Origin: Bacteroidota bacterium
Lineage (GTDB): Bacteria; Bacteroidota; Bacteroidia; Bacteroidales; JAIOZK01
Direction: 5' to 3'
Length of the DNA stretch: 64,000 nt
Assembly: GCA_034521425.1 (NCBI GenBank)
Contig: JAXHMP010000001.1
Span: forward strand, 2,779,182-2,843,181
The notes beneath the pieces are model-generated. The model made no database searches. It was not told the origin of the DNA and saw only the letters and a program-made list of their open reading frames with translations. Shown here in pieces: positions 2,740 through 24,391 of this stretch (position 1 is its first letter; every line of letters begins with the position of its first letter). The translations under genes and the position numbers were made by a program.

Positions 2740-3341
2740 ATGAGTAAGCCAACAAACATCCACCCCGTATTCCACCAGATCCTCACCCGCGCCGACAAGG
2801 AGAAGTTCCTCAGGCAGCGCTCCTGTGTGATCTGGATGACGGGGCTGAGCGGCAGCGGCAAAACCACCATTGCCCGCCACATCGAAATTGAACTGAACAA
2901 AAGAGGTCACCTCACCCAGGTGCTCGACGGCGACAACATCCGCACCGGCATCAACAACAACCTGGGCTTTACCGAGGAGGACCGCATCGAGAACATCCGG
3001 CGCATCGCCGAAGTCTCCAAACTCTTCGTCGACTGCGGGGTGATCTGCATCAACAGCTTCATCAGTCCTACGAAGGAGATCCGACACCTGGCCATGGACA
3101 TCATCGGCAGGGAAGACTTCATCGAGGTATTCGTAAACGCCCCCTGGAAGTCTGCGAGCAGCGTGATGTAAAAGGCCTGTACAAAAAAGCCCGGGAAGGG
3201 AAAATTAAGAATTTTACGGGCATTGACGCCCCCTTCGAAAAACCCGAAAAAGCACAAATCGAACTCCTGACCGGAAAACAAAGCATCGCAGAAAGCATGG
3301 AAGTGGCCCTGGAATACATCATTCCACGGGTGACTTATTGA
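2740..3341 (+). pseudogene. cysC: Adenylyl-sulfate (APS) kinase with one apparent frameshift
   Basis: P-loop GLSGSGKTT plus LDGDNIR, FISP motifs. The frame breaks at a C5 run (3140-3144). With one more C the ORF reads ..[40 protein letters not shown] ending at 3341. This could be a sequencing error or a recombination scar. Confidence 0.85.
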
Positions 3342-3586
3342 ATTCCTGTCTGCCGACAGGCAGGAATCCCGATGAGGCCGAATCGGGACAACAACACAAA
3401 ACAACAAACCAATTAGATCAATTAGATTAATTCGATGACAAAAAAATCCGATGATCATCATCTAATTCAACGAATTAAACGCCGCACACATCGTAATGAA
3501 ATGAAGATAGGGAATGAATGATTGGATGGATGGATGGATGGATGAATGGATGGATGGATGAATGAATGGATGGATGAATGAATGAA
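3338..3586. repeat. Composite spacer module, copy 1 (hairpins + AACAAAC + 'aattagatcaattagattaattcgatgac' block + GGATGRATG STR)
   Basis: Direct repeat of 4542-4873: ttgaattcctgtctgccgacaggcaggaatcccgatgaggccgaatcgggac...cgaattaaacgcc...ggatggatgaatg array. Confidence 0.85.
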
Positions 3587-3652
3587 AAAGTGCCTAACAA
3601 TCACACAATCCCGGGCTGATCATTTTTATTATCTTTGAATAAAGCCTTAGAA

Positions 3653-3914
3653 ATGAAAACCATAAAATACATAGTTTATAAAGATGGAAAACACTACGTT
3701 TCGCAAAGCTTAAACGTGGATATTTCAAGTTTCGGGAATACGATTGAAGAAGCAACATGAATTCTACTTTAAAAGCCAAAGAGGAAGCCATCAAAAATAT
3801 GTGAACAACAGCAAAACTGTGATTGTTCCCGCAAACAAAAAAGAGATACCCCTTGGCACATTGAATTCAATCAGCCGAAGTACAGACCATACCGACTTGC
3901 AAAAACACAAATAA
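3653..3914 (+). pseudogene. HicB/HicA-like toxin-antitoxin remnant
   Basis: MKTIKYIVYKDGKHYVSQSLNVDISSFGNTIEEAT* is HicB-N-like. It is followed by FYFKSQRGSHQKYVNNSKTVIVPANKKEIPLGTLNSISR (HicA-like core). Both parts are truncated or fused. Confidence 0.4.
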
Positions 3915-3927
3915 CTTATTAACTTTG
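3897..3927 (+). promoter_or_regulatory. Bacteroidetes-type promoter (TTG - 20 nt - TAACTTTG)
   Basis: TTG at 3897-3899 and TAACTTTG at 3920-3927, about 37 nt upstream of the DUF4160 start. The same TAACTTTG module occurs before three other cassettes. Confidence 0.5.
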
Positions 3928-3963
3928 TTAAAAGCAGATGTTTTAATAAATTACTTAAAAACT

Positions 3964-4200
3964 ATGCCTGAGATTTTTCGGAAATTTGGATTTGTTTTTT
4001 TCTTTTACTCAAATGAAGGACAAGAACCCATGCATGTGCATGTGAGAAAGGCTGGTGGTTTTGCAAAATTCTGGATCGAACCGATAGAACTGGAATTTTC
4101 CCAGGGAATGAAAGTTGGGGATATTAAAAAGGCTGAAGAACTCGTTTACGAGTATACAGAACTTATAAAAGATAAGTGGAATGAAGTACATGGTAGCTGA
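3964..4200 (+). CDS. DUF4160-family small protein
   Basis: MPEIFRKFGFVFFFYSNEGQEPMHVHVRKAGGFAKFWIEP.. matches the DUF4160 pattern. Overlaps its DUF2442 partner. The ORF-track start at 3925 is probably too early. Confidence 0.7.
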   Translation: MPEIFRKFGFVFFFYSNEGQEPMHVHVRKAGGFAKFWIEPIELEFSQGMKVGDIKKAEELVYEYTELIKDKWNEVHGS

Positions 4201-4435
4201 ACTAATGTTTAAGGCAGTGGAAGCCTGGTATGAAAAGGGTAAAATATGTATCATGTTATCTGATAATAAAGAAATCAGGTTTCCGGTTACTTTAAATAAA
4301 GAATTACGAAATGCTCCTGTTGATAAGCTGGCAAATATTGAATTAATTTGTGATGGTACAGGACTGCATTGGCCTGATCTGGATGAGGATTTATCAGTTA
4401 CGGGAATAATTGAAGGAAGATATGGCAAAGCTTGA
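4181..4435 (+). CDS. DUF2442-family small protein (partner of DUF4160)
   Basis: ..GLHWPDLDEDLSVTGIIEG.. is the typical DUF2442 C-terminus. Overlapping gene pair. Confidence 0.7.
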   Translation: MKYMVAELMFKAVEAWYEKGKICIMLSDNKEIRFPVTLNKELRNAPVDKLANIELICDGTGLHWPDLDEDLSVTGIIEGRYGKA

Positions 4436-4541
4436 GGCTGTCTTTTATTCTTAAACCTGTTCAGTGTTCAGGCACAACACCAAATTCAATGAAACCCGTC
4501 TTTCAGAAGACGACGCCAGGAGGTGAACTGAAAGTCGTTGG

Positions 4542-4873
4542 TTGAATTCCTGTCTGCCGACAGGCAGGAATCCCGATGAGGCCGAATCGGGACAACAACA
4601 CAAAACAACAAACCAATTAGATCAATTAGATTAATTAGATGACAAAAAAATCCGATGATCATCATCTAATTCAACGAATTAAACGCCACACCAATCCTAA
4701 TGAAATGAAGATAGGGAATGAATGATTGGATGGATGAATGAATGGATGAATGATTGGATGGATGAATGAATGGATGAATGATTGGATGAATGGATGGATG
4801 GATGGATGATTGGATGAATGGATGGATGGATGGATGATTGGATGAATGGATGGATGGATGGATGAATGGATGA
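4542..4873. repeat. Composite spacer module, copy 2 (longer GGATGRATG STR)
   Basis: Same module as 3338-3586, with a ~160-bp ggatgaatg/ggatggatg array at 4716-4873. Confidence 0.85.
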
Positions 4874-4880
4874 AGGGACT

Positions 4881-5250: not shown

Positions 5251-5448
5251 TTATACAAACATACAGTATAGCCCCAACACAAAACATTTACACTGAGTCA
5301 TTCGACAGGCTCATGATAAACTCTGCCGAAGTGACAAACAAATTAGATCAATTAGATTAATTCGATCAATTCGATGATAAAAATCATCTGATGACAAAAA
5401 AAACTGATTAATGTTTAGTGTCTTTAACTTAAGATGAATACCAAACAC

Positions 5449-5479
5449 TTGCAAACACACATTTTACACATTAACTTTG
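5449..5479 (+). promoter_or_regulatory. Portable promoter module (TTG - 20 nt - TAACTTTG)
   Basis: gatgaataccaaacacTTGcaaacacacattttacacatTAACTTTGtaatgaattaaaaa. Near-identical to the 6875-6905 module upstream of an unrelated cassette. Confidence 0.55.
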
Positions 5480-5502
5480 TAATGAATTAAAAATAACTGA
5501 AA

Positions 5503-5709
5503 ATGTTTGATTTATCCATATTACCGAAAAAAGCTCAGGATGAGTTATTTTCTTATTATCAATACCTGGTTGAGAAGTATAGTCGTAAAAAATCAACCAA
5601 TATTCATAAGGAGAAGTCAAGAATAAAAGAAATAAACTCCTTTTTCGACAAGTATAACCTTGATTTCAAAGGATTTTCATTTAACAGGGACGAAATTTAT
5701 GAATCCTGA
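5503..5709 (+). CDS. Putative antitoxin of PIN toxin
   Basis: 68-aa ORF overlapping the PIN gene by 11 nt. No family recognised. Confidence 0.5.
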   Translation: MFDLSILPKKAQDELFSYYQYLVEKYSRKKSTNIHKEKSRIKEINSFFDKYNLDFKGFSFNRDEIYES

Positions 5710-6103
5710 AATTACTATTGACAGCAATGTTCTTGTTTATGCCTTTAGCAGCCAGGACAATACAAAAAAGTCAATTTCGAAAAAGATATTATCGGATTGT
5801 GTAAAGATTAGCATACAGTCTATTAATGAAACATTGTATGTTCTGTATCGAAAGTTTGATTTCAAAGCAGGAGAATTACTCAAAATACATAAGTTTTTTG
5901 AAGAAACATTTATCATAAAAAATCTGGACATTACAACAATTACAAAAGGTTTGGAAATTTTAAACACTTACAACTATAGTTACTGGGACAGTATGATGCT
6001 TGCTGCTGCAATTGAGTGTGATTGTAAAATCATATACTCGGAAGATATGCATCACAAACACCTCATCGAAGAAAAACTGGAGATAATAAATCCGTTCATT
6101 TGA
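5699..6103 (+). CDS. PIN-domain (VapC-like) ribonuclease toxin
   Basis: MNPEITIDSNVLVYAF (N-terminal acidic D) and ..YWDSMMLAAAIECDCKIIYSEDM.. (C-terminal acidic residues). Typical size and operon position. Confidence 0.7.
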   Translation: MNPEITIDSNVLVYAFSSQDNTKKSISKKILSDCVKISIQSINETLYVLYRKFDFKAGELLKIHKFFEETFIIKNLDITTITKGLEILNTYNYSYWDSMMLAAAIECDCKIIYSEDMHHKHLIEEKLEIINPFI

Positions 6104-6150
6104 ATGTAATTATTGGGTATTCAGCCTAATCCAAAACCCAACAATTTATA

Positions 6151-6290: not shown

Positions 6291-6648
6291 ACAAACACAG
6301 AAGCCGAAGACACATTCAAAACCAATGATAACTTTGCGACTCTGCGTGAAATAATTCGTGTAAATCCCTGCCTGCCGGTAGGCACGGTGTGTAATTCCCC
6401 GCTTATTGCGGGACAGGCGTGGACAAAAAATTAGATCAATTAGATTAATTCGATGACAAAAAAATCATCCGATGATCCATCATCTAATTTATCGAATTAA
6501 ACCCTGTGTAATTGTCGATATCATAGATCAAGTTGAATAGTTCAGGATTTATTACACAGGGTAAACGAATTAAACGCCGTGGCCGTCATAATGAATGGAA
6601 GAAAGGAAATATTTCACGCAAAGCCGCAAAGACGCGAAGTTTTGACGG

Positions 6649-6817
6649 AATGAACTACCCCGAGGCAAGCCTGCGGGGTATCATTATGAAACATTCATTT
6701 GATTCGCCCCAAGGGGCGGGGAATATTACCCACGAGATCCCTCGACAAGCTCGGGATCAGTTCGACTTTGCTTTTTCAGTTCGCTATCGCTCCTAAAAAA
6801 TCAGTCTCACTGATTTA
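6649..6817. mobile_element. 169-bp MITE, copy 1 (IS3-family derivative)
   Basis: aatgaactaccccgaggcaagcctgcggggtatcattatg...cagtctcactgattta. Copies also at 54156-54324 and 63114-63282. Its ends resemble those of the IS3-family element at 44970-46197. Confidence 0.75.
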
Positions 6818-6874
6818 ACGCCGCACCCGTCGTAATGAAATGTAGATAGGTAAAAACTGATGAATACCAAACAC

Positions 6875-6905: not shown

Positions 6906-6931
6906 TATTGAATTAAAAACAACTGAAAACA

Positions 6932-7183
6932 ATGAGTTACCGAATAACATTAGAAATACCGGATAGAGCTTTTTCCGTCTTGCGTGATAATCCGAATAAA
7001 TTTGCAAGAGAGTTATTGGAAGCAGCTTTATGTAAATGGTATGAGCAGGGTAAAATATCCCAATCTAAAGCTAGCGAAATTGCTGAAATCTCCAGGTACG
7101 AATTCCTTGAGATATTAAAAAAGCATGACGTAAATCCTTTTCAGTACACACCTTCCGACCTGGATGCAGAGATTAAACTTTAA
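6932..7183 (+). CDS. UPF0175-family antitoxin-like protein
   Basis: ..ELLEAALCKWYEQGKISQSKASEIAEISRYEFLEILKKH.. is the typical UPF0175 signature. Followed by a DUF3368 (PIN-like) gene. Confidence 0.7.
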   Translation: MSYRITLEIPDRAFSVLRDNPNKFARELLEAALCKWYEQGKISQSKASEIAEISRYEFLEILKKHDVNPFQYTPSDLDAEIKL

Positions 7184-7189
7184 CAAGGC

Positions 7190-7489
7190 ATGAAAATCAT
7201 ACTGAATGTCTTCTCCGGCAATCTTCCTGGCTAAAATCGAATTAATTGATTCGTTGCCAATGTTTTGTGATCAGCTTATCATTCCGGATGGTGTAATTAA
7301 TGAAATACAGAAACATCACGATGAAGCATCACGATGGCTTAAACAGAATGAATAATTTTAAAAATGCAACAGGCTAAATTAATCAATGACGCAACTGCCC
7401 CACTTACCAGGCTTCGTGAAAAAGGATTCAGAATAGATGATGCTTTATTTCAGCACGCTTTAAAAATAGCACATAACAACTTACACTGA
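7190..7489 (+). pseudogene. DUF3368 (PIN-like) toxin, decayed
   Basis: Starts MKIILNV.. and ends ..LREKGFRIDDALFQHALKIAH. Multiple stops and frameshifts in between. Confidence 0.55.
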
Positions 7490-7514
7490 ACACCAAACAC
7501 CAAACACCAAGCAC

Positions 7515-8700: not shown

Positions 8701-8810
8701 GACATTTGTGCAATTCCCCGCTTATTGCGAAACAGGCGTGGATAAAAAAATTAGATTAATTAGATGAAAAAAAAAATTAGATGACAAAAAAAATCCGATG
8801 AAAAAAAAAT

Positions 8811-9138
8811 TTAACACCCGCTTAACTTGACAAACCCCCATAAATGAGTAAATTTGTTACTCAATATTGATTGAAAGGGTATGGATAAAGAAGCACAAAT
8901 AACAATCGGTATTACTCAATCTTTATCCAACCTGCTGATACATCATCTTTCAGCAAGCATTGTTAGCCCCCTGTGGGAGTGAGAGGGCGGAGCTGTGATG
9001 TTGGTGCTCAGTGTTTACGACTGCCGAAACTACAAACACTTGTGTTCATTTGTGGATGAAAAAAAAGGAGAGGGGAGAAAGGAGAACAGTTAATCAATGA
9101 ACTGGGTAAGAGCAGTTATGGTAAGTATTTGCAAAAAA
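8811..9138 (+). repeat. ~320-bp conserved promoter + leader, copy 1 (upstream of AlbA_2 ATPase gene)
   Basis: TTG (8827-8829) - 19 nt - TAAATTTG (8849-8856), followed by a conserved untranslated stretch. Copies at 10931-11234 and 14750-14873. Confidence 0.7.
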
Positions 9139-9273
9139 TAATGGACAGGTAGTGAATTAAAAATAAAGTTACACAATATACATTTTGAAACTCGTAGAGG
9201 GCGCCGGCTCCATAGGCCAGATTGTTATAAAATAGAATACCAAATACCAAACACATAACACCAACCATAACCA

Positions 9274-10608
9274 TTGCTTACAGAAAACGCAAATAGTGAA
9301 TTAAAGGAAATCTGGAAGGATGATTATCTGAAGGTAATTGCAGCTTTTGCCAATACCAATGGAGGTGCGCTGTATATAGGAATCAGTAATGATGGTTGTA
9401 TTGTAGGTGTCGATAATTATAAAAAGCTACTAGAAGATATCCCCAACAAAGTTGTTCAATTTTTAGGTATAACGGTTGAACTTGATCTGATTGAAAAGGA
9501 AGGAAAACATATTCTTAAATTAGTTGTTGAACCAAGTTCGGTTCCAATTTCTTATCATGGAAAATATTATATGAGGAGTGGAAGTACGGTCCAGGAACTC
9601 CACGGGCATGAATTACGTGATTTTATTCTGAGGAAGGATAACATCACATGGGATGAAATTACAATTCCATCAGCAAAATTGGGGGAACTTGATGAAAAAC
9701 TGATACGTCGCTTCTTAATAAAAGCCGTCAATGAACAAAGGTTGTATCAGGATGCACTAAACGATGATTTTAAGGGTTCACTCGAAAACCTGGATTTAAT
9801 CAAAAATAATGGACAACTAACACGGGCAGCTATTTTGCTTTTTGGTAAACGACCTAACAAATATATCAGGACTGCAACTGTCAAAATAGGTAGGTTTGGG
9901 AAATCTGATACCGATCTGATTAGCCAGGATGTTATAGATGGTAGTATCTTGGAAATGCCCGATAAAATTATCGATATCCTAAGGACTAAATACTTGCATT
10001 CACCGATTACTTACGAAGGCATTGAGCGCAAGGAGCGACTTGAATATCCGGAAAAGGCAGTTAGAGAAGCTGTATTGAATTCCATTGTGCACAGAGACTA
10101 TACCGAACAAACAGATATTACTATCAGGCTGTACAACGACAGAATCGTCTTTTGGAATAGTGGAATACTGATTGCTCCTTTGAGTGTTGAAATGTTAAAA
10201 CAAAAACATCCCTCAAAAAGAAGAAATCCACTTATTGCTGGAATTTTTTTCAGAATTGGTTATATTGAAGCATGGGGAAGGGGAATTCAGTTAATAACAG
10301 AAGAAATGAATAATGCAGGTATGCCAGATCCGATTATTGAAGAATACGCTGGAGGATTTCAAATGACATTTCTCAATGGAGATTCTAATGGTGTGGAGAA
10401 AAGTGTGGAGAAAAGTGTGGAGAAAAGTGTGGAGAAAATAGTTGCTTTAATTAAGAACAATCCAAATATTACACAAAAAGTGTTGGCCAATCAAACAGGA
10501 CTATCAAGACGTGGCGTAGAAAAAAATATTAGCATTTTGAAAAAGAAGGGAATAATCAAACGCATTGGCCCCGCAAAAGGAGGGCATTGGGAGGTAATTG
10601 ATGAATGA
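9274..10608 (+). CDS. AlbA_2 (Schlafen-like) DNA-binding + HATPase_c_4-like + C-terminal wHTH protein (often mis-annotated 'RecG-like')
   Basis: 444-aa intact ORF (TTG start). N-terminal ELKEIW..VIAAFANTNGGALYIGI, central ..AVLNSIVHRDY.., C-terminal wHTH ..TGLSRRGVEKNISILKKKGIIKRIGPAKGGHWEV. Has an internal VEKS x3 tandem linker. Confidence 0.75.
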   Translation: MLTENANSELKEIWKDDYLKVIAAFANTNGGALYIGISNDGCIVGVDNYKKLLEDIPNKVVQFLGITVELDLIEKEGKHILKLVVEPSSVPISYHGKYYMRSGSTVQELHGHELRDFILRKDNITWDEITIPSAKLGELDEKLIRRFLIKAVNEQRLYQDALNDDFKGSLENLDLIKNNGQLTRAAILLFGKRPNKYIRTATVKIGRFGKSDTDLISQDVIDGSILEMPDKIIDILRTKYLHSPITYEGIERKERLEYPEKAVREAVLNSIVHRDYTEQTDITIRLYNDRIVFWNSGILIAPLSVEMLKQKHPSKRRNPLIAGIFFRIGYIEAWGRGIQLITEEMNNAGMPDPIIEEYAGGFQMTFLNGDSNGVEKSVEKSVEKSVEKIVALIKNNPNITQKVLANQTGLSRRGVEKNISILKKKGIIKRIGPAKGGHWEVIDE

Positions 10609-10930
10609 AAGCATAAATAGCAAGGTTGTGGGTCCAAAAGTTACACAGTGTACCACAACTTGTCCCGCCCTGGCGGGAGAGTACAGCACAGAGTAAAACC
10701 AAACACTGTGAAACTCTGTGAAAAACACCGTGTAACTCTCCCGACAATACGGGACAAGTTGTGCAACTAAAACACTGTGAAACTAAAAACAACAAACACC
10801 CCCTTGAAATATGCTTTTTCCACGAATTTCAGGAGGGAGACCCAACACCAAACAACAACCAAATTAGATCAATTAGATTAATTAGATGACAAAAAAAATT
10901 AGTTGAAAAAAAATCCGATGAAAAAAAAAT

Positions 10931-11234
10931 TTAACACCCGCTTAACTTGACAAACCCACATAAATGAGTAAATTTGTTACTCAATATTGATTGAAAGGGT
11001 ATGGATAAAGAAGCACAAATAACAATCGGTATTACTCAATATTGATTAAAAGTTTATGTTAGCCCCCTGTGGGAGTGAGAGGGCGGAGCTGTGATGATGG
11101 TGCTCAGTGTTTACGACTGCCGAAACTACAAACACTTGTGTTCATTTGTGGATGAAAAAAAAGGAGAGGGGAGAAAGGAGAACAGTTAATCAATGAACTG
11201 GGTAAGAGCAGTTATGGTAAGTATTTGCAAAAAG
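10931..11234 (+). repeat. Conserved promoter + leader, copy 2
   Basis: TTG 10947-10949 and TAAATTTG 10969-10976. Homologous to 8811-9138 with an internal deletion. Confidence 0.7.
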
Positions 11235-11337
11235 TAATCATAAGCTAAGCCAACTATATCTGATGAACTGTCAAATAGCACCCCCTAAACCCAAACTCTA
11301 AACATTTATAAAATCAACTGAATATCAAAAATTCAGA

Positions 11338-12037
11338 ATGCCAACCAACTCCACAAAAAGTATTAACAAGCTTAAATCTCAAATTCAGGACATTGCTCAT
11401 AATTGTGATCCTTCAATTTTAATTGATCTTACAGAAATGGATTCTTTATTGGCAATTGAAATTCCTGAAGGTAAAAACAAGCCTTATTCCTGTTCAACAG
11501 GTTTTTATATGCGTATGGGAGCTAATTTCCAAAAAATGAAAAGGAATGAAATATTGTCGCTTGCTATTAAATCAGGAAAAGTTAGGTTTGACGAACAAAG
11601 GTGAATTACTTTTTCCGAAAAGTGAGTTTGGCAAAAAGAGCGAAGCCAGAAATCGTTTATTGGTTGATTTACTTGCAAGAACGGATTTTATGGAAAAAGC
11701 AGGAACAGGAATTAAGCGGGTTACCAATGCGTGTATTGAAAATGGCAATGAGGTTAGTTTCGAATTCTCCGATTCTTTTTGGGTAACAATGTATTCAAGT
11801 CAGCATGTTACTGAAAATGTTACTGAAGATGTTACCAAAAATGTTACCGAAAGCAGATTGACGCTGATCATGAACGAGATGAAATTGAATCCGAAGATTT
11901 CTTACAACCAGCTTAGTAAAATTCTGAATGTAGCCCGGATGACAGTTTTTCGCGATATTGAAAGACTGAAAGAAGATGGTAGGATTAAACGCATCGGCCC
12001 CGCCAAAGGCGGCCACTGGGAAATCATTCAAGAATAA
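11338..12037 (+). pseudogene. Truncated/frameshifted paralogue of the AlbA_2-ATPase-wHTH gene
   Basis: Retains the ..KPYSCSTGFYMRMGAN.. and ..MEKAGTGIKRV.. segments and the wHTH tail (RIKRIGPAKGGHWEI). Large internal deletions and one frameshift near 11600. Confidence 0.7.
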
Positions 12038-12290: not shown

Positions 12291-12400
12291 CATTTACCCT
12301 GTTTACCCCGCCTGTCCCATGAAACCTCATCTCACTGGATTGATCTCTTCACAATCAACCGGGTGGAATCACGAAGTGAATATTCCATCAGGGACAAACA
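12291..12400. repeat. ~115-125-bp structured repeat, copy a
   Basis: catttaccctgtttaccccgcctgtccc(g/a)tgaaac..gtttcactggg..ggaatcacgaagtgaatattccatcagggacaaac. Nested stems: gtccc/gggac, gtgaaac/gtttcac, ggaat/attcc. Confidence 0.8.
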
Positions 12401-12417
12401 ACAAACAAAAGAAACCA

Positions 12418-14199: not shown

Positions 14200-14220
14200 T
14201 TGTTTGGTACTTCGGCAAAA

Positions 14221-14750: not shown

Positions 14751-14873
14751 TAACAACCGCTTAACTTGACAAACCCGCATAAATGAGTAAATTTGCTACT
14801 CAATATTTGATTAAAAGTATATGTTAGCCCCCTGTGGAGTGAGCGGGCGGAGCTGTGATGTTGGTGCTCAGTG
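14750..14873 (+). repeat. Conserved promoter + leader, copy 3 (orphan, truncated)
   Basis: TTG 14766-14768 and TAAATTTG 14788-14795. Homology to 8811-9138 ends at ..ggtgctcagtgt. No AlbA_2 gene follows. Confidence 0.65.
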
Positions 14874-15013
14874 TAAGGCACAAACCCTGAACACCAAACA
14901 CCAAACACCGAACACCAAACAATTTATCCTGAGCCTGCCGAAGGGCTCATGACAGGCTCATGCCGAAGAAAAAAGAATCTGACTTATCCCTTAACTAGTA
15001 TTAATTTTAACCC

Positions 15014-15276
15014 ATGCGCCTTACAGAAGAAGAAAAAAATATCATTAAAAACACCATCGCTAATTTTATCGGAGCCCAGGTGCGCTTGTTCGGATCCAGA
15101 ACGAAGGACTAGGCCCGGGCGCAGACATTGACCTGTTGATCATCAGCAAATATTTAAAATACAAAGACAAACTGCTGATCAGGGCGGCATTGAAGGCTTG
15201 GAAATCAAAATTGATATTATCATTACCACAAAACCCGATACTGCCTTTACACGGCATGCCTATAAACAAAGCCTGA
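15014..15276 (+). pseudogene. MNT-type nucleotidyltransferase, decayed
   Basis: MRLTEEEKNIIKNTIANFIGAQVRLFGSR.. followed by multiple frameshifts. Confidence 0.6.
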
Positions 15277-15280
15277 TTTT

Positions 15281-15732
15281 ATGAGTCACAGGGATCACAT
15301 CGAAATCCTGCAAGAACACACAGAATCATTGCAAAATGCGCTTAAAAAAATGGTTGAAGCGATCATTGGAGATTTGTAAACAGCATCCCATTGACAACCT
15401 CAGTCCGGAGCAATGGATGCATACGAAGGCTTAACGAGTCGTTTTGCACGTGTATGCGATATCCTTTTTAGCAAGCTCTTCCGAACTATCTTCTTCTTAG
15501 AGCAAGGGGAAGCAGGAACATGGCTAGATGTGCTTCTGTTTATGGAAGAAAATGTCATTGACAATACGAAAGAGGCAAGGCTTCTCAAAGAACTCAGAAA
15601 TGACATTGTGCATGAGTATGCTGAACTATGAACATAATTTTCAGGGAAGTGATGGATCAAGCCCTTTTTGCTCCAATACGCAAAGGAAGCACTTCTCAAA
15701 GTTCAGAACTAAACGAAAAATTGAAAAGTTAA
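15281..15732 (+). pseudogene. HEPN-like partner of MNT, decayed
   Basis: ..AYEGLTSRFARVCDILFSKLFRTIF..RNDIVHEY (R-x4-H HEPN motif). Related to 23443-23898. Frameshifts near 15400 and 15630. Confidence 0.6.
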
Positions 15733-15742
15733 GTTACGGATT

Positions 15743-15903: not shown

Positions 15904-15919
15904 ATTAAAAACAAGGACA

Positions 15920-16716: not shown

Positions 16717-16967
16717 ATGAGTTACCGAATAACTTTAGAAATACCGGATAAAGCTTTTTCCATTTTGCGTAATAGGCCCGATAAATTTGCAAGAGAATTA
16801 TTGGAGGCTGCCTTGTGTAAGTGGTATGAACAGGGTAAAATCTCTCAGTCAAAAGCAGCCGAAATAGCCGAATATCCAGGGACGAATTCCTTGAGATATT
16901 AAAAAAGCATGACGTAAATCCTTTTCAGTACACACCTTCCGACCTGGATGCAGAGATTAAACTTTAA
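16717..16967 (+). pseudogene. UPF0175 antitoxin-like gene, frameshifted duplicate of 6932-7183
   Basis: Near-identical N-terminus (MSYRITLEIPDKAFSILRNRPDKFARELLEAALCKWYEQGKISQSKAAEIAE). Frameshift near 16875. Confidence 0.7.
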
Positions 16968-16973
16968 CAAGGC

Positions 16974-17101
16974 ATGAAAATCATAGGCTAAATTAATCAA
17001 TGACGCAACTGCCCCACTTACCAGGCTTCGCGAAAGGATTCAGAATAGATGATGCTTTATTTCAGCACGCTTTAAAAATAGCACATAACAACTTACACTG
17101 A
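16974..17101 (+). pseudogene. DUF3368 remnant (larger deletion than 7190-7489)
   Basis: ATGAAAATCATA|GGCTAAATTAATCAATGACGC.. joins the start of the gene directly to its last ~100 bp. Confidence 0.6.
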
Positions 17102-17282
17102 ACACCAAACCCCGATGAGCTACGAATCGGGACACAAAACAACAAACACCAAACACCAAACATTTACCCTGTGGAATCACGAAGTGAATATTCCATCAGG
17201 GACAAACACAAAACAACAAACAACAAACAAATTAGATCAATTAGATTAATTCGATGACAAAAAAAATCATCCGATGATCAAA

Positions 17283-17411
17283 ATGAAATATAAGTACTCA
17301 TCACACAGCCTTGAGCAACTGCAAAGAAGACAGATAAGCAAAAAAAATGTCGATGAGGTACTTAATAATCCCGATCAGATAAAAGTTATTGAGAAATGTA
17401 CAAAAGATTGA
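17283..17411 (+). pseudogene. DUF4258-like toxin fragment
   Basis: MKYKYSSHSLEQLQRRQISKKNVDEVLNNPDQI.. is truncated at 42 aa. The family call is tentative. Confidence 0.35.
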
Positions 17412-17414
17412 GAG

Positions 17415-17602
17415 ATGAAGATAAAATACGATAAAGAATCGGATATTGTATATATCAAATTCTCCAACAGCGAAATAATCGAAAGTGACGAAAACAAACC
17501 CGGTATCATCATCCATTACTAAGAAGAGGGAATATTACAGGTATTGAAGTATTAAACGCTTCCTCAAAAATGTTACAACCGGATAGTATCATCTACGAAT
17601 AA
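17415..17602 (+). pseudogene. DUF2283-like small protein, frameshifted
   Basis: MKIKYDKESDIVYIKFSNSEIIESDE.. followed after a frameshift by ..GNITGIEVLNASSKM. Confidence 0.45.
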
Positions 17603-17852
17603 GTAGAGTCATTGGCCGTGTTTCATCATCGATCATCGCCTTGCCTGCCGGCAGGCAGGAGGTAATGTTTCGTGTTCCAGTGTTCGGGTGTTTTCATGTT
17701 CAGTGTTTCGTGTTTCGTGTTCGGTGTTCGGTGTTCGGAGCAGCATAACACAAAACAACAAACAACAAACAACAAACAATTTATACTGAGCTTGCCGAAG
17801 TACCAAACACAAAACAGAAATAACATTTGAGTAATTTGAGGACAAAAAATCA

Positions 17853-17934
17853 GTGGACAAAAAACTATAGTCCTTTTGCCAAATAGACTAAAATATTTGG
17901 AATGGACAGACCGATACGATATATTTCCTGTTTT
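17853..17934. repeat. Left copy of ~80-bp direct repeat flanking the IS (long target duplication)
   Basis: gtggacaaaaaactatagtccttttgccaaatagactaaaatatttggaatg.. matches 19561-19643, including a degenerate copy of the darT start. Confidence 0.8.
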
Positions 17935-19560
17935 CCGCATTTTTTTGGGACACCCTCTGAAACCCTTGTTAATATTGGATTTTATATTTAACTTGGGTGT
18001 CCCAAAATGTCGCTCATGTTTATTCGCAAGAAACCCAATCCTTCGGGAAGCACTTCTGTACAATTGATTCAGAAGATCAAGGGCAAGTATAAGGTGGTAA
18101 AAACGATCGGTTGCGCCACTACGTTGCGCGAAATTGAAACATTGGAACACATTGCTCGTCAGGATATTGAGTTACTGACTGCCCAGACTGAACTTTTTTA
18201 TAGCAAAGAGGATACGCTGATCGAAAATCTTGTTGCCTCGATCAGTAATGATGACATCCAAACCCTGGGCCCGGAACTCGTGTTCGGTAGGATTTATGAT
18301 AGTATTGGGTTTGATGCCATCAAGGAAGAAATGTTTCGTCACCTGGTCATAGCAAGATTGGCCTATCCTTTGAGCAAACTGAAAACCGTTGATTACTTGT
18401 ATCGTTATCAGCGGGTTTTATTGGATAGTGATGCTATATATCGCTTCCTGGACAAATTGAGCAGTAAGTTAAAGCCACAGATAGAGCAGATCGCCTTCAA
18501 GAACACGATGAAAGTTCTTCGGGGAAAAGTCAATATTGTTTTTTACGATATGACAACGCTTTACTTTGAGGCCAGTGATGAAGATGATTTGCGAAAAACG
18601 GGCTTCAGCAAGGACGGCAAGCATCAAAACCCACAAGTTTTCATTGGTCTTTTGGTAGGACTGAATGGATACCCGATTGGGTACGACATTTTTAAAGGAA
18701 ACACATTTGAAGGACACACCCTGATCCCATTCATTGAGAAGATGGCTAAGAAGTTCAACCTGGGAAAACCAGTGGTTGTGGCAGATGCTGGGTTGTTATC
18801 AAAAAGCAATATTGAGGCATTAGAGAACAAGGGATACGAGTACATTCTTGGTGCCAGGTTAAAAAACGAAACGGATCAACTTAAACTACAAATTCTTGAA
18901 TCGAAATTTGAAGACGCAACGATTCAAAGCTTCAAGCGAAAGGATAAATCAAGACTCATTGTTCATTACGCTTCAAGCAGAGCAAAAAAGGATGAGTATA
19001 ACCGCAAAAGAGGCCTGCGACGCTTAGAAAAGCGAATAAAAGCAGGCAGGTTGACCAAATCCAGTATTAACAACAGGGGCTACAATAAATATTTAAAACT
19101 GAGTGGCGAAGTAAGTATTGAAATTGACTACGACAAATTTGAAAAGGACGATCAATGGGACGGTCTGAAGGGTTATATCTCCAACACGAAAATGACAAAT
19201 CAACAAGTATTAGACAATTATAAACATCTTTGGCAAATCGAGAAAGCCTTCCGCATGTCAAAAACAGATTTGAGAATACGACCTGTTTACCACAGATTGC
19301 AAAATAGAATCGAAGCCCATATTTGCATTGTGTTTACAGCATACAGTATTTACAAGGAGCTTGAGAGGGCTTTGTATGAAGCAAATTCAACACTTTCCTT
19401 AAAGAAAGCAGCTGAGATAACACATAGGATTTATCAGATCACCTATACTTTACCGAGCGCTAAGCAAAGGAAATCCAGGTTGCTGAAAATGGACAAAAGC
19501 CAGGCGGAGTTGGTCAGAATCATCAACGAAAAATTTTAGGGTGTCCCAAAGCGGTATAAA
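17935..19560 (+). mobile_element. IS1634-family insertion sequence
   Basis: Terminal inverted repeat ccgcatttttttgggacaccct (17935-17956) versus agggtgtcccaaagcgg (19538-19554). One 510-aa transposase ORF. Long flanking direct repeats are a known trait of IS1634. Confidence 0.8.
18007..19539 (+). CDS. IS1634-family (IS4-related DDE) transposase
   Basis: Intact 510 aa. The N-terminus MFIRKKPNPSGSTSVQLIQKIKGKYKVVKTIG is characteristic of the family. Also has ..VVADAGLLS.. and ..YKHLWQIEKAFRMSKTDL..RPVYH. Confidence 0.85.
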   Translation: MSLMFIRKKPNPSGSTSVQLIQKIKGKYKVVKTIGCATTLREIETLEHIARQDIELLTAQTELFYSKEDTLIENLVASISNDDIQTLGPELVFGRIYDSIGFDAIKEEMFRHLVIARLAYPLSKLKTVDYLYRYQRVLLDSDAIYRFLDKLSSKLKPQIEQIAFKNTMKVLRGKVNIVFYDMTTLYFEASDEDDLRKTGFSKDGKHQNPQVFIGLLVGLNGYPIGYDIFKGNTFEGHTLIPFIEKMAKKFNLGKPVVVADAGLLSKSNIEALENKGYEYILGARLKNETDQLKLQILESKFEDATIQSFKRKDKSRLIVHYASSRAKKDEYNRKRGLRRLEKRIKAGRLTKSSINNRGYNKYLKLSGEVSIEIDYDKFEKDDQWDGLKGYISNTKMTNQQVLDNYKHLWQIEKAFRMSKTDLRIRPVYHRLQNRIEAHICIVFTAYSIYKELERALYEANSTLSLKKAAEITHRIYQITYTLPSAKQRKSRLLKMDKSQAELVRIINEKF

Positions 19561-19643
19561 GTGGACAAAAAACTATAGTCCTTTTGCCAAAATAGACTAA
19601 AATATTTGGAATGAGTATACCCGATACCATATATTTATTTCGC
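19561..19643. repeat. Right copy of the IS-flanking direct repeat
   Basis: See 17853-17934. Confidence 0.8.
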
Positions 19644-20245
19644 TTAATACATGTAGATAACCTTGAATACGTTCTAACCAAAGGGTTTTTAACGTGTCCC
19701 AATCATCATGCAAGGGATGAAAATTATATTAATATCGGTGATCAAACATTAATTGAAAGTCGAAATAAAAAGCAAATACCTGTTGAGCCCAGCGGATACT
19801 TTCATAACTATGTTGCGTTTTATTTTGGAGTCAGGCCACCAATGCTGTACGAAATACAAAAAGGTTTAACAAGGTTCTTAAACGACATCCCGGTGAAATC
19901 ATTTATCTGGTAACAACCTTTGATGCAGTGAAAGATGCCGGATTATCATATGTTTTTACGGATGGTCATGCTTATGATAATTTTACCCGGTTTTTTAATC
20001 ATGAAAGCGAGCTAAAACATGTAGACTGGAATGCGGTTAAGCTTAAAAGATGGAATGAAACAGAAGAAGATCCTGACCGTAAACGCAGGAAGCAGGCTGA
20101 ATTGTTGATTTATAATGAATTACCGTTAGAGATTATTAAGGCTTTTATCGCTTATGATGATACGGCTAAGAATAAAATTTTAAGTATCTTTGAAAAATAC
20201 ACTTTTAAATGTCACGTACTTGTAAAGCCACAATGGTATTACTGA
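19611..20245 (+). pseudogene. darT: DarT-like (DUF4433) ssDNA ADP-ribosyltransferase toxin, frameshifted
   Basis: YLFRLIHVDNLEYVLTKG..NIGDQTLIESR..YVAFYFGVRPPMLYEI and ..FTDGHAY..KRRKQAELLIY lie in two frames (break near 19900). The IS is inserted at its 5' end. Confidence 0.75.
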
Positions 20246-20246
20246 A

Positions 20247-21278
20247 ATGATTGAATTCAGAAAAGGAAACATAGTAAAAGCTGATGCCGAAGCCCTTGTT
20301 AATACAGAAATACTTTAGGTATTATGGGTAAGGTATTGCATTAGCATTTAAAAAGGCTTTTCCGGAAAATTATAAGCGTTACAAAGTAGCCTGTGACAAC
20401 AAAGAATTTACTATTGGAGAAATCCTCATTACGGAAACCGGAAGAATTACACCGAAATACATCATCAATTTTCCAACGAAAGCCCATTGGAAAGAAAAGT
20501 CGAAATTAGCGTATATCGAAAAGGGAATGAAAAGACTGGTGCAGGTGATTCAGGATTATGAAATCCAGTCAATAGCCATACCCCCTTTGGGATGCGGCAA
20601 TGGCAGATTAAACTGGGCAGGATGTCAAAAAAGTGATGCTTAGCGAGCTGGAGCGCTTACAGGAAAATATAGATATCATTATTTTTGAACCCGGATATAA
20701 TGACCAGACCACCGAAACCCAAAAAACCAATAACCTCACCCCGGCACGCGCGATGACTAACAGCTTTAAAGATTATCAGGTCTTAGGATATAGCATCAAT
20801 TTGCTGGTTGCTCAAAAGTTGGCCTACTTCATGCAACGCTTAGGAGAACCCTTAAGTCTGGAATATGAGAAAGGGATTAATGCCCGTATTCGCATCGCTT
20901 ACAGCATCTGCTCAAATATTTAAATGGCTCTTTTTGCAATTTCGGAACGAACAAACAAAACCCGGAACAAAAGTAACTCAATTATACGGAACAAGCCATC
21001 CATTATACACAAAACCAATTGAGCACTGAACAACAAAACCGGCTTGAAGAATTAAAGCAACTCACAGAAGGCTTTGAGTCACCCTATGGATTATAGAACT
21101 CTGGCAACGGTAGACTTTATCTACCAAAAAACAGGCATGATTGATAAGGACAAAGTTTCACAGGAAATTGGAAATGACCCACAGAAAAAGAGAATTAATG
21201 AAACCCTACCATATTGAAGTAGCCATTAATAGACTCATGGAATTTTACCAGCGCAAGCAGCTAACCCATACAGCATAA
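20247..21278 (+). pseudogene. darG: DarG-like macrodomain antitoxin, multiple frameshifts/stops
   Basis: MIEFRKGNIVKADAEALVNT..GIALAFKKAFPENY..IAIPPLGCGNGRLNW is a macro domain. The C-terminal DarT-binding part is fragmented. Confidence 0.7.
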
Positions 21279-21443: not shown

Positions 21444-21788
21444 ATGACCACCTGGAAAACCTTTGAAGAAATCGAATGCTGGCAACTAGCCAGGAGCTTC
21501 TGTACAGAGATATATAAAAATATCACGCAGTATAAAGGCTTGAATACTGACTATGCATTAAAAAGATCAAATCGAATCGGTCCTCTGGTAGCATCATGGA
21601 TAACATCGCAGAAGGATACGGATGGAGGCGGCACCAAAGAATTATTAGCATCCAGCATAGCAAAAGGCAGCGCAAGCGAATCTCGTTCTCAACTATACAG
21701 GGTTCTTGACCGGCAATACATTGATCAAGAGAAACATCAAGAACTACAGGAAAAAACACGCGAACTAATTAACAAAATCGTGGACTGA
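21444..21788 (+). pseudogene. Four-helix-bundle (23S rRNA IVS protein family) gene, frameshifted
   Basis: TFEEIECWQLARSFCTEIYK.. and ..KGSASESRSQLYRVLDRQYIDQE.. The middle segment (expected ..SIMDNIAEGY..) is out of frame. Flanked by GTTTGTT/AACAAAC arrays. Confidence 0.7.
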
Positions 21789-21880
21789 TTAGCTATCTTG
21801 GAAATCTGGTATAAAAGGAACCAAATACAAATAGATTCTGTTTGTTGTTCGGTGTTTCAGTGTTTGGTGTGGCGGTAGGC

Positions 21881-22106
21881 AACAACAAACAACAAACAAA
21901 AAACAAACAAACAAAACTACAACAAACAAACAAACAGAAACAAACAAACCAAACCAAACAAACAACAAACAACAAACAACAAACAAACAAACAAACAAAC
22001 AACAAACAACAAACAAACAAACAAACAAACAAACAAACAACAAACAAACAAACAAACAAACAAACAAACAAACAAACAAACAAACAAACAAACAAACAAC
22101 AAACAA
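21881..22106. repeat. AACAAAC heptamer STR (~225 bp)
   Basis: The longest array of a heptamer that recurs in dozens of spacers. It creates spurious 100-aa ORFs on both strands. Confidence 0.95.
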
Positions 22107-22188
22107 ATGTCCAATCACGGCATATCCCAAATACTCTTATCAACTGATCATTGAAACATTAAGCAATGAGGAGCAGATACTCCAGGCA

Positions 22189-22461
22189 GTGCTATATGGT
22201 TCACGGGCTATTGGAAACGCCAGAAAAGGTTCGGATATCGACATTGCTATCAAGGCATCTACCATCAGTTATGAACTGATCAATACCCTGAGTACAAAGC
22301 TTAACCAGGAACTTCCTATACCCTATCATGTAGATGTGCAGCATTACGATACCATAAAAAATGAAGCATTGAAAAAACACATTGATGATTACGGTCAGAT
22401 TATTTACCAAAAACAACAAACACCAAACAACCAACACAAAACAACAAACACCAAACACTAA
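22189..22461 (+). CDS. MNT-type nucleotidyltransferase (minimal NTase) with STR-derived C-terminal tail
   Basis: LYGSRAIGNARKGSDIDIAI motif. The true start is probably further upstream, near 22130 at the STR edge. The last ~17 codons (QKQQTPNNQHKTTNTKH) are AACAAAC-type repeat. Confidence 0.7.
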   Translation: MLYGSRAIGNARKGSDIDIAIKASTISYELINTLSTKLNQELPIPYHVDVQHYDTIKNEALKKHIDDYGQIIYQKQQTPNNQHKTTNTKH

Positions 22462-22470
22462 AACAAAGAA

Positions 22471-22881
22471 ATGAACAGCAAAGAAATCCGCTGGAAACAA
22501 CGTTTTGATAACTTCAATAAGGCATATCTCAAATTAAAAGAAGCCATTGAAGATTTTGAAAATCTTGATCTCTTATCCAAAGAAGGATTGATCCAGCGTT
22601 TTGAATATTCCTATGAGCTGGCCTGGAAAACATTAAAGGACTTTCTTGAAAGCAGGCAGGTAGAAACAGGATTCCCCAGGGATGTCATTAAACAGGCCTT
22701 TGCATATGATATTATCGATGATGGGGAAATTTGGCTGAACATGCATAATCAGCGAAATTTATTAAGCCATACCTACGACGAAGAAAACTTTCACAAGGCC
22801 CTGGAATTAATCCGAAAACAGTATTACGAACAACTGAGTAAACTTCATCATTATTTGCAACTGCAAGTAGATAATGATTAG
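22471..22881 (+). CDS. HEPN nucleotidyltransferase-substrate-binding protein (HI0074 family)
   Basis: RWKQRFDNFNKAY..RFEYSYELAWKTLKDFL..RNLLSHTYDEE (HEPN R-x4-H). Intact, 136 aa. Confidence 0.8.
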   Translation: MNSKEIRWKQRFDNFNKAYLKLKEAIEDFENLDLLSKEGLIQRFEYSYELAWKTLKDFLESRQVETGFPRDVIKQAFAYDIIDDGEIWLNMHNQRNLLSHTYDEENFHKALELIRKQYYEQLSKLHHYLQLQVDND

Positions 22882-23002
22882 TTTTTTGTTCAGTACTTCG
22901 ACAAGCTAGTTAAACTGTTCGGTGTTCAGTGTTCCAGTACTTCGACGGGCTGAGTCTAATTTTTAATTAATTTTACCTAAGTATTAGCAAAAGGCGAAAT
23001 CT

Positions 23003-23446
23003 ATGATTTAGCTTTAAAAAATTCAAATTCATTAAAACGGCTCTAACTGCATTATTCATAAAATAGCTTAATGTACTCAAATAATGCAGGTTAACCCCGG
23101 CTTAAAAAGCTTGCAATTTGAAAACGAAGTGCATCAAATTGGTAGCTTTCTCAGTCGTGGATGAATTCAGCGTTTCACCTTTTAGGCTTATGAATTATCC
23201 GGGTTAAAAACCTGGCACCGAATCTGAAGTTTACATTTTTGGTTCCAGGGCAGATGATCAAGCCAAAGGGGGAGATATCGACATATTGTGGCTGACAAAA
23301 GAAAAGATACCACAACAAAATACCAGAAAATTTAAAGTTGAGTTTTACAAGAATTTCGGATGGCAAAAAATAGATATCGTAAACTTCACTTTTAAGCAGA
23401 AAACACTTTCAAAGATATAGCCTTAAGCCAGGCAGTGGAATTATGA
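23003..23446 (+). pseudogene. MNT nucleotidyltransferase, disrupted by a ~150-bp insertion near its 5' end
   Basis: Same gene as 13795-14081 (..VYIFGSRADDQAKGGDIDILWLTKEK..), but the 5' part is interrupted. Confidence 0.65.
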
Positions 23447-23898
23447 ATACAAATAACAGCAATCATATAGAATTACTTGCAGATAATTGGGAATTGCTGC
23501 AAACAGCTTGAAAACCTTGAAGAGATCCGTCGAAAAAGCGCAATCAATTGGTCAAAAGGAAGAATACACATTTGAAGAAATGGAAGCCTTTGATTCACTG
23601 ACATCAAAATTTAGCCGAAGCTCCGATATTTTTCTGCAGAAAATTATGCGAACGCTGTGGGAGCTTTTACATGAAGATAGAATGCCCCTGATCGATATGC
23701 TCAACAAAGCCGAAAAGCTGCACATAATTCACTCGGCAGATGCTTTGCTGGAAGTTCGTGATATACGACAGGATCTACCATGAATAGTCCCTGAAGCTAT
23801 ACAGGAGCTATCCCGGATGTTATAATGCTAACGGAAAGACTCGAAGAAAATATCAATACATGCCGTGAATTCCTGTTGGCTCGCAACTGGATAAATTA
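23443..23898 (+). pseudogene. HEPN-like partner, frameshifted (full-length version of the 14079-14199 remnant)
   Basis: ..EEMEAFDSLTSKFSRSSDIFLQKIMRTLW.. with frame breaks near 23487 and 23783. Ends ..ARNWIN*. Confidence 0.6.
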
Positions 23899-23920
23899 AT
23901 TGTTTGGTACTTCGGCAAAA

Positions 23921-24036
23921 CATTTACCCTGTTTACCCCGCCTGTCCCGTGAAACCTCTTCTTGTTTCACTGGGATTGATTCTCTTCACAATCAACCGGG
24001 GTAAAATCACGAAGTGAATATTCCATCAGGGACAAA
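23921..24036. repeat. Structured ~120-bp repeat, copy d
   Basis: Same element as 12291-12400. Confidence 0.8.
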
Positions 24037-24391
24037 CAACAAACAACAAACAACAAACATTTTTACAAGTGAACATAAAAACTTACAGAAAACACTCGAA
24101 CTAATCAACAAAATCGGAGGATTAATAGCCTATCTGAAGAAATCAAACTACAAAGGAACAAAGTTCAAATAAAACACTGAACAACAATCACCCCGTTGAA
24201 ATATGCTCGTACCTCGCATTTCACGGGGTAAACCAAACAACAAACAACAAACAACGAACAACAAACAATTTATCCTGAGCCTGCCGAAGGGCCTGTCCTG
24301 AGCTTGCCGAAGGGCTCATGATAAATCTTGCCGAAGTAACAAAAAAATTAGATCAATTAGATTAATTCGATGATAAAAATTAGTTGAATTA

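Follow-up and report, generated by a model that had tools for sequence, protein, structure and literature searches.

The window analyzed here, by which we mean the whole 64-kb stretch of DNA, contains a 21-kb array (3.3-24.4 kb) of about 31 genes and gene remnants. These form about 18 cassettes of one or two genes each, lie on the + strand throughout, and belong to toxin-antitoxin (TA) and abortive infection (Abi) families. In this uncultured lineage of Bacteroidales, the array makes up the variable, TA/Abi-rich part of a long polysaccharide locus whose genes run co-directionally. It has a characteristic architecture and a conserved position, its content and order vary among relatives, shared cassettes show an excess of identity, breakpoints fall in repeats, and the repeats are direct only. 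An initial annotation of the sequence had likened it to chromosomal integron arrays, and the likeness holds for the co-oriented small TA/defense cassettes with array-confined repeats between them. The array is integron-like in its working, yet it fails every defining test of membership and is not an integron. We favor, with moderate confidence, the explanation that the region is a cassette hotspot evolving by homologous recombination between spacer repeats, with its orientation held by the host operon.

In such a hotspot, portable direct repeats in the spacers would recombine through homology or microhomology, and cassettes would in this way be gained, lost, duplicated, and put into a new order. 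Within a genome, this could proceed by unequal crossover or by loop-out followed by re-entry; between genomes, DNA taken up from relatives could recombine through crossovers in shared spacers or in cysC. The repeats that would serve are lineage-specific and direct: A/C heptamer tracts, a module made of a left (L) arm, a core, and a right (R) arm, a 120-nt repeat, and a promoter-like element of 390 nt. Co-orientation would persist because antisense insertion or inversion would break read-through to downstream genes, and since the array is embedded in a long co-directional operon-like unit, one-directionality is a property of the whole locus. We infer RecA-type recombination, read-through transcription, and selection for orientation alike. 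The operon-like unit probably runs under processive antitermination, and the TA modules probably guard the array against large deletions, as in chromosomal integrons.

Relatives carrying the same locus were found through homologues of its permease, with amino acid identities of 95% for L024 (NPIE01011603.1), 85% for L025 and L030/L031, and 75% for L026; a further locus, L028, which includes L021, comes from the Bacteroidales metagenome-assembled genome (MAG) Tobar13.5m-G7. The gene order common to the relatives is a NusG-like gene, UDP-glucose dehydrogenase, a CapD-like gene, cysD, cysN/C, the SLC13 permease, cysC, and then the array. In L024, L025, L026, L028, and L030, an all-plus-strand TA/defense array follows directly after cysC, and its gene set is different in each. 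The NusG-like gene is an UpxY-family antiterminator, with NF033644 scores of 171.7 bits (L024) and 164.6 bits (L028) at a cutoff of 100; NusG-domain genes are also present in L026 and L030. Polysaccharide genes (FdtA, sulfotransferase, DegT) lie 3' of the array in L024. Genomes whose permease is only ~60% identical are arranged differently and lack the array.

The strain comparison that the initial annotation had proposed for cassette gain, loss, and reordering was thus positive, with differing content and permuted order at this locus in the five relatives. Shared cassettes are more alike than core genes in most comparisons: 91% versus 77-79% for the window and L025, 86% versus 71-75% for L024 and L026, 90% versus 71.5% for L025 and L026, 93% versus 79% for L024 and L025, and 98-100% versus 93.8% for L025 and L030. 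One exception is an MNT cassette that the window has in common with L024, for which cassette and core both stand at 86%. Taken in L025 order, the corresponding blocks of L030 lie at 19.4, 15.3, 13.1, 16.6, and 14.2 kb. The MNT195/HEPN and MNT99/HEPN cassettes are swapped between L021 and L024, and DUF6922/AbiEii stands ahead of both pairs in L021 and behind them in L024. Pieces of polysaccharide genes also occur within or at the start of relatives' arrays (L030, 17626-18255; L025, 4820-5218), namely, a CapD-like Polysacc_synt_2 piece of 209 aa and an Epimerase_2 piece of 132 aa; their presence suggests array growth through recombination that pulls in parts of other polysaccharide loci.

Breakpoints between close relatives fall in A/C heptamer tracts and in other repeats or modules that the arrays have in common. 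Among repeat pairs of at least 90 nt in the array, all 25 are direct and none is inverted, and several bracket cassettes. The L025/L030 junctions fall in A/C tracts of the (AACAAAC)n type just 5' of cassette promoters, where the AATTAGAT module described below is absent. For MNT99 and MNT195, the left breakpoints vary between promoter box and A/C tract, and the right breakpoints lie ~13 nt past the stop codon, inside the ATCATC-N-GATGAT core of that module. The right edge of the array is marked by a relic:

24438-24567, +, degenerate 3' end of cysC (last ~130 nt; peptide ...ESMRMALEYILPRVTY / ...ALEYILPRVTY, followed by a stop)

The relic stands directly ahead of the first polysaccharide gene and is closer to the end of the L024 cysC (72.7% identity, E = 2e-15) than to the window's own cysC, which argues that the array segment entered, or was replaced, by recombination in cysC.

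Cassettes of the array

All credible genes between 3.6 and 23.9 kb are on the + strand, as the initial annotation had stated. The cassettes are as follows:

3653-3914, +, HicB/HicA cassette, both genes truncated
3925-4435, +, DUF4160/DUF2442 pair (Pfam)
5503-6103, +, 68-aa antitoxin and PIN toxin, with a portable TAACTTTG promoter ahead (5440-5481)
6932-7490, +, UPF0175 and DUF3368 (184-nt deletion), the cassette 91% identical to that of L025
7515-8410, +, DUF6922-like gene and AbiEii (Pfam, PADLOC)
9274-10608, +, SLFN_AlbA_2, HATPase_c_4, and winged helix-turn-helix (wHTH) protein of 444 aa (Pfam)
11338-12037, +, second AlbA_2/HATPase_c_4 gene, in two pieces (Pfam)
12319-13551, +, ATPase_2-type AAA ATPase, in three frames (Pfam)
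13795-14200, +, MNT/HEPN cassette, a deletion derivative 96-99% identical to 23204-24053
14990-15700, +, MNT/HEPN remnants, 86% identical to L024
15920-16270, +, Unstab_antitox antitoxin and short toxin remnant (Pfam)
16717-17113, +, second UPF0175/DUF3368 cassette, degraded, an intra-array duplicate of 6926-7501
17283-17600, +, DUF4258/DUF2283 remnants (Pfam)
17905-19559, +, IS4-family insertion sequence with a 510-aa DDE transposase, a ~53-nt duplication of the DarT leader on both sides
19611-20640, +, DarT (split in two) and DarG macrodomain (frameshifted) (Pfam, PADLOC)
21444-21788, +, intervening sequence (IVS)/four-helix-bundle protein gene (Pfam)
22189-22881, +, MNT (Polbeta) and HEPN (NTase_sub_bind) pair (Pfam)
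23204-24053, +, duplicate MNT/HEPN cassette, with a 120-nt repeat copy behind it

Two cassettes are therefore present twice, their copies ~10 kb apart. Families scoring above the Pfam gathering threshold are HicA, DUF4160/DUF2442, PIN, UPF0175 (twice), AbiEii, Unstab_antitox, DarT, Macro, Polbeta/NTase_sub_bind, and DUF2283. SLFN_AlbA_2 plus HATPase_c_4 plus wHTH (twice), ATPase_2, DUF4258, 23S_rRNA_IVP, and the IS4-type DDE transposase were also confirmed; PADLOC matched AbiEii, DarT, and DarG. Most of the families named in the initial annotation were recovered in this way, but its ParE partner and DUF3368 had no Pfam match in the window; DUF3368 is intact in L030. The assignment of the array to TA/Abi systems is thus a prediction from family matches above curated thresholds and from two-gene arrangements, and many copies are broken, a point to which the initial annotation gave little weight: DarT and the second AlbA_2 gene are each in two pieces, the ATPase_2 gene is in three, HicB/HicA are truncated, DUF3368 has lost 184 nt, and in cysC a 1-nt frameshift adjoins a run of C. 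The large deletions are genuine, that in DUF3368 certainly so; single-base frameshifts such as that in cysC may stem from errors in the long-read assembly.

The direct duplication of the DarT leader around the IS4 insertion (17852-17904 and 19560-19613) includes the ATG and is far longer than the target duplication expected of an IS4-family element. The terminal inverted repeats of the element (TTGGGACACCCT / AGGGTGTCCCAA) were considered as kin of the module arms described below, and the sequences are unrelated.

Spacer repeats and alternative explanations

Roughly one third of the array is spacer. The view of these spacers as mosaics was borne out: recurring modules were found, and heptamer and 21- to 23-nt tandem repeats are present. 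The reported portable promoter exists as two exact 42-nt copies, and the 120-nt repeat, for which five copies had been claimed, has its 3' part five times and its 5' part three times, all on the + strand and all in the array. The principal repeat features are as follows:

3338-3586, +, left member of a pair of 249-nt direct repeats (95% identity with 4542-4790) that stand on either side of the first two cassettes
4542-4790, +, right member of the same 249-nt pair (95% identity with 3338-3586)
6429-6502, +, complete "empty" module (L arm, ATCATC-N-GATGAT core, R arm)
8749-9142, +, 394-nt direct repeat with 90% identity to 10871-11238; between the two lies the AlbA_2 cassette
14415-14729, +, two consecutive R-linker-L units of ~135 nt, a tandem unit of the module family
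21884-22107, +, (AACA)n A/C-only tract, the largest of 31 in the array, all +

The left 249-nt copy holds two small hairpins, an A/C tract, the AATTAGAT module, and (TGGA)n. The 394-nt repeat carries a promoter-like element (TTGACAAAC...GAGTAAATTTG) that is common to all relatives. This element reads TTAACTTGACAAAC-N8-AATGAGTAAATTTG, followed by a GCTGA...TCAGC stem and GGGCGGAGCTGTG, and it is kept in every related array, even that of L026. It has no match in Rfam and may encode a small RNA or serve the arrays as a common promoter plus leader. Its sites are 8795-9140, 10915-11235, and 14735-14885 in the window, 1615-1800 in L021, 7050-7230 in L025, 13330-13470 in L026, 12940-13170 in L028, and 12815-12990 in L030.

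Tracts of at least 14 nt made only of A and C number 44 on the + strand of the whole window and 1 on the - strand. They occur at nearly every array junction, mostly in spacers just 5' of promoters or start codons, and (TGTTCGG)n tracts followed by complementary A/C tracts are found after genes. This extreme strand bias suggests that the spacers may have a role in RNA as well, for instance, in the loading of Rho, the initiation of translation, or processing. It would be possible to go further and regard the repeats as primarily functional RNA or transcription signals of the operon (insulators, Rho-utilization or translation-enhancer A/C tracts, terminator-like GU/AC hairpins, or RNase III stems like those of rRNA IVSs), with recombination a mere by-product. 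The antiterminator gene at the head of the locus in relatives and the inverted heptamer arrays that flank IVS-protein genes elsewhere in the window would fit. We nevertheless consider this unlikely. The proposal is drawn from sequence patterns, Rfam gave no match for the whole window (gathering threshold) or for 8.4-9.3 kb (E ≤ 1), and the module families differ between close relatives, unlike a conserved signal. It also leaves cassette exchange unexplained, and it is compatible with a recombination hotspot.

The most conspicuous repeat is the AATTAGAT module. At least 13 copies of this block had been claimed; a search with AATTAGATCAATTAGATTAATT gave 13 matches at up to 3 mismatches, which correspond to 12 sites. 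All 12 are on the + strand within 3411-24367, where 0 are expected by chance, and their L arms start at 3411, 4615, 5341, 6429, 8497, 10862, 14355, 14530, 14697, 16489, 17230, and 24346. The arms are built from 9-mer iterons (AATTAGATN / AATTCGATN): the L arm has them as direct repeats, the R arm in inverted orientation. The L arm consists of three direct 9-mers (AATTAGATC AATTAGATT AATTCGATGA) and then an A run; 3' of it lies the core, the short palindrome ATCATC-N-GATGAT. The R arm has the inverted 9-mers (CATCTAATTNATCGAATTAAAC), from which a conserved linker of ~95 nt leads on to the next L arm. Genes are placed between the L arm and the palindrome.

These properties would suit a dedicated system that is integron-like without being an integron, in which the L arm-core-R arm or the 135-nt unit is the site of a recombinase or transposase encoded elsewhere in the genome. 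The arrays of L026 and L030 argue otherwise: they have the same architecture and are shuffled, but they lack the module, which is therefore dispensable for the array architecture. In L025, the module occurs only beside cassettes that look imported from the L021/L024 lineage. The L025/L030 breakpoints in A/C tracts and the variable left breakpoints described above do not mark one fixed site. R-linker-L units are closer to other units of the same genome than to the unit beside the same gene elsewhere, which indicates concerted evolution, and no consistent association of a unit with its upstream or downstream gene was found. Single-strand folds of the module are weak (-8 to -14 kcal/mol, z of -1.5 to -4, the two strands alike), and nine R-linker-L units revealed no covariation, arm-arm pairing having one compensated change and two broken pairs at the sole variable position. 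The ideas that the AATTAGAT block is an attC equivalent, and that this "aattagat" block folds like an attC bottom strand, therefore fail: hairpins are weak, without strand preference or covariation, two arrays do without the block, and breakpoints do not sit at a single fixed site. The more general suggestion of a different cassette-shuffling system survives to the extent that cassettes are gained, lost, and reordered, but evidence of a distinct shuffling machine was lacking, with no recombinase in the 64-kb window or the five relatives' flanks.

Several observations nonetheless weigh against our preferred explanation and would also fit a site-specific system. The module is strikingly confined to the array and uniform in orientation, its R-linker-L length is near-constant at 135 nt, it often directly adjoins the stop codon of the gene before it, and the right breakpoints of two cassettes (MNT99 and MNT195) lie within its palindrome. 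Because of the array confinement, the constant unit length, and the two breakpoints in the core, we keep a dedicated enzyme in view as a quite unlikely explanation. Furthermore, recombination was deduced from sequence comparison. The relatives' contigs are short-read assemblies, in which mis-joins at repeats are possible in principle; against this concern, more than one independent assembly yielded the arrangement of L025, and the same is true of L030. Finally, the evidence for UpxY comes from relatives, the corresponding position in this genome lying outside (upstream of) the window.

Outside the window, the full module was found in GTDB representative MAGs and the Joint Genome Institute (JGI) metagenome collection only in homologous arrays and on the short contigs L013, L014, and L022. 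Matches to a 22-mer in Candidate Phyla Radiation (CPR) genomes, Gammaproteobacteria, and other MAGs were rejected as the module, their contexts being unrelated AT-rich tandem repeats of 9-mers; among these matches, only L021 and the same three short contigs hold the true module. A distant-mode blastn search of plasmids and phages with module plus linker gave no match, and a scan of viral contigs was likewise empty. The CPR and other MAG loci (L002, L005, L007, L010, L012, L015, L017, and L020) contain intergenic runs of very similar 9-mers (AATTAGATCAATTAGATTAATTAGGTCAATT), which adjoin other short tandem repeats and inverted copies (TAATTGACCTAA...TTAGGTCAATTA); these runs could form a class of their own, widespread among genomes, of AT-rich palindromic spacers.

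This distribution also bears on whether the spacers are ordinary dispersed selfish elements, of the miniature inverted-repeat transposable element (MITE) or repetitive extragenic palindromic (REP) type, that have piled up in a nonessential region. Several small palindromic repeat families, the IS4 insertion, and an H module found in both orientations could be read in this way, as could a sharply bounded 170-nt element present on the + strand at 6649-6818, 54156-54325, and 63114-63283 with 99-100% identity. The last spans ATGAACTACCCCGAGG...CACTGATTTAA with several hairpins; Rfam has nothing that matches it, and it resembles either a small mobile element that was active recently or a noncoding RNA gene. 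The main module and the 120-nt repeat, however, occur in the array alone and in one orientation, do not recur in the remaining 43 kb of the window, and match public collections only in matching arrays and the three short contigs. Target site duplications are not evident, and the linker between units is itself conserved; we regard a dispersed-element origin as very unlikely.

The initial annotation had noted neither an intI gene nor canonical attC sites, and this was upheld. Pfam identified no integrase (no Phage_integrase) among all open reading frames of at least 90 aa in the window, and no integrase or recombinase was found in the 10-kb flanks of the same locus in L024, L025, L026, L028, and L030. 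Sites of the attC type range from ~57 to 141 nt. A rule-based scan of 3.3-24.6 kb on both strands for attC-like RYYYAAC...GTTRRRY pairs with inner stems gave 0, versus 0.14 in shuffles, and no attI/Pc region could be identified. Integron cassettes are mostly promoterless and served by a common promoter (Pc) next to attI, whereas about half of the cassettes here have their own promoter with a Bacteroidetes-type TAnnTTTG box; this box lies 20-50 nt upstream in 5 of the 14 cassette starts examined and only 3 nt from the start in a sixth. A degenerate integron, that is, a cluster of attC sites lacking an integrase (CALIN) with atypical sites, is barely credible: the array is co-oriented and TA rich with species-specific repeats, as in arrays of Vibrio cholerae repeats (VCR), and its spacer units fall in the size range of attC sites and are imperfect inverted repeats, but R''/R' pairs with inner L boxes and intI are missing as described, many cassettes have their own promoter, the adjacent tandem "empty" units are unlike products of attC × attC excision, and complete integrons are extremely rare in Bacteroidetes (PMC9024848).

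Host locus and flanks

The array separates cysC from the sugar-modifying genes within a co-directional polysaccharide locus, an operon of the capsule or O-antigen type. Its immediate neighbors are as follows:

248-2032, +, conserved core gene of the left flank, an SLC13/CitMHS permease with 100% identity to MDZ7742714.1 (4,086,901-bp contig, Bacteroidota MAG)
2191-2580, +, four-helix-bundle/23S rRNA IVS protein gene between permease and cysC
2740-3341, +, cysC (adenosine 5'-phosphosulfate [APS] kinase), final conserved gene ahead of the array, with the 1-nt frameshift
24608-24844, +, CMP-sugar cytidylyltransferase fragment, opening the downstream polysaccharide part

The source genome is closed and presumably long-read, so the repeat structure is not a short-read artifact. 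The window has ~38% G+C, TAnnTTTG -7 boxes, and A-rich leaders without a Shine-Dalgarno sequence, all marks of Bacteroidota, and the array is lower in G+C than the flanking core genes. These promoters and leaders, together with the Bacteroidota/Bacteroidales matches, ruled out the short tandemly repeated repetitive (STRR)-type repeats of cyanobacteria that the heptamers had brought to mind. There are no tRNA genes in the window.

From 24.6 to 54 kb, the + strand carries co-directional polysaccharide genes (CTP_transf_3, epimerases, DegT, Epimerase_2, NeuB, flippase, GT2, and GDP-mannose dehydratase), many of them fragmentary. Most of the polysaccharide genes checked between 24600 and 46000 are fragments: CTP_transf_3 of 78 aa, an epimerase of 118 aa, DegT of 241 aa, Epimerase_2 of 103 aa, NeuB of 158 aa, a flippase of 107 aa, and GT2 of 103 aa. 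They reflect either a decaying locus or many indel errors in the long-read assembly. The locus probably makes a sulfated polysaccharide.

The right limit of the array at 24.4 kb is not sharp, as TA/defense genes with different repeat families appear again at 47-63 kb. This second stretch (47000-63000) has its own repeats (units of 81, 109, 270, and 296 nt, and 21-mers) and includes YoeB (49438), PIN (59991), and AbiEii (62090) genes, along with the PADLOC candidates PDC-S01 (55325-56593) and PDC-S27 (57187-58623, - strand). Small four-helix-bundle (23S rRNA IVS protein, TIGR02436) genes and one GxxExxY/PDDEXK_3 gene sit in intergenic gaps of the conserved operon, in the window at 2191-2580, 21444-21788, 48420-48794, 50555-50929, and 52411-52806, and also in L028 and L030; the positions differ among relatives. 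The IVS gene at 48.4 kb has inverted heptamer arrays, (TGAGAGG)n upstream and (CTCACYN)n downstream, which resemble the stems of true rRNA intervening sequences.

Relation to known systems

If the recombination hotspot explanation is correct, integron-like features (single orientation, modular cassettes, fast shuffling, and horizontal exchange of TA/defense genes) arise without an integrase, the portable repeat spacers giving the homology and the host operon, probably under processive antitermination, enforcing orientation. The array physically ties the turnover of phage defense genes to the locus of a likely phage receptor, the surface polysaccharide, and this link offers a testable idea of how uncultured Bacteroidales handle phage pressure. 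Such arrays would escape tools of the IntegronFinder type, and short-read assemblies would break them up. Were a dedicated recombinase involved instead, an integron analogue would have evolved independently in Bacteroidales and be housed in a polysaccharide operon.

Sedentary chromosomal integrons and CALINs, such as the Vibrio superintegron with its VCR, share with this array a long, co-oriented series of small, TA/defense-rich cassettes, lineage-specific repeats confined to the array, duplicated cassettes, content and order that vary among relatives, and TA genes that plausibly stabilize the whole. The array differs from them in that no IntI, attI, or canonical attC site (R''/R' boxes) was found, many cassettes have their own promoter, "empty" units occur in tandem, several repeat families are mixed in the heterogeneous mosaics at its junctions, its breakpoints do not share one fixed site, and it is set inside another operon.

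The setting resembles the UpxY capsular polysaccharide loci of Bacteroidales: polysaccharide genes follow one another co-directionally over a long distance, the downstream part is variable, and in relatives the locus opens with a NusG paralogue of the UpxY family. To our knowledge, no UpxY locus has been described with a 10- to 20-kb TA/defense array in its middle, and targeted literature searches for TA arrays in UpxY-type polysaccharide loci and for integrase-free, repeat-spaced TA cassette arrays returned nothing comparable. Unlike in UpxY loci, no invertible promoter or recombinase was seen upstream here.

Defense islands, and the flexible islands found by O-antigen or capsule clusters, resemble the array in the clustering of TA/Abi genes (AbiE, DarTG, MNT/HEPN, PDC-S01, and PDC-S27) at a conserved hotspot, in strain-level turnover of content, and in a G+C content below that of flanking core genes. 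The array is distinguished from them by its strict single orientation, its modular repeat spacers, and its place within an operon rather than at a tRNA gene or mobile-element integration site. A further parallel is found in the minimal mobile elements of Neisseria, in which cassettes are exchanged via homologous recombination between conserved flanks. There, as proposed here, cassettes without mobility genes of their own are replaced by homologous recombination after DNA uptake; in the present array, however, the homology would come from short spacer repeats and cysC, not from two conserved flanking genes, and many cassettes are chained. Among these systems, the array is best filed as a TA/defense hotspot of an unusual kind: operon-embedded, single in orientation, and repeat-spaced.

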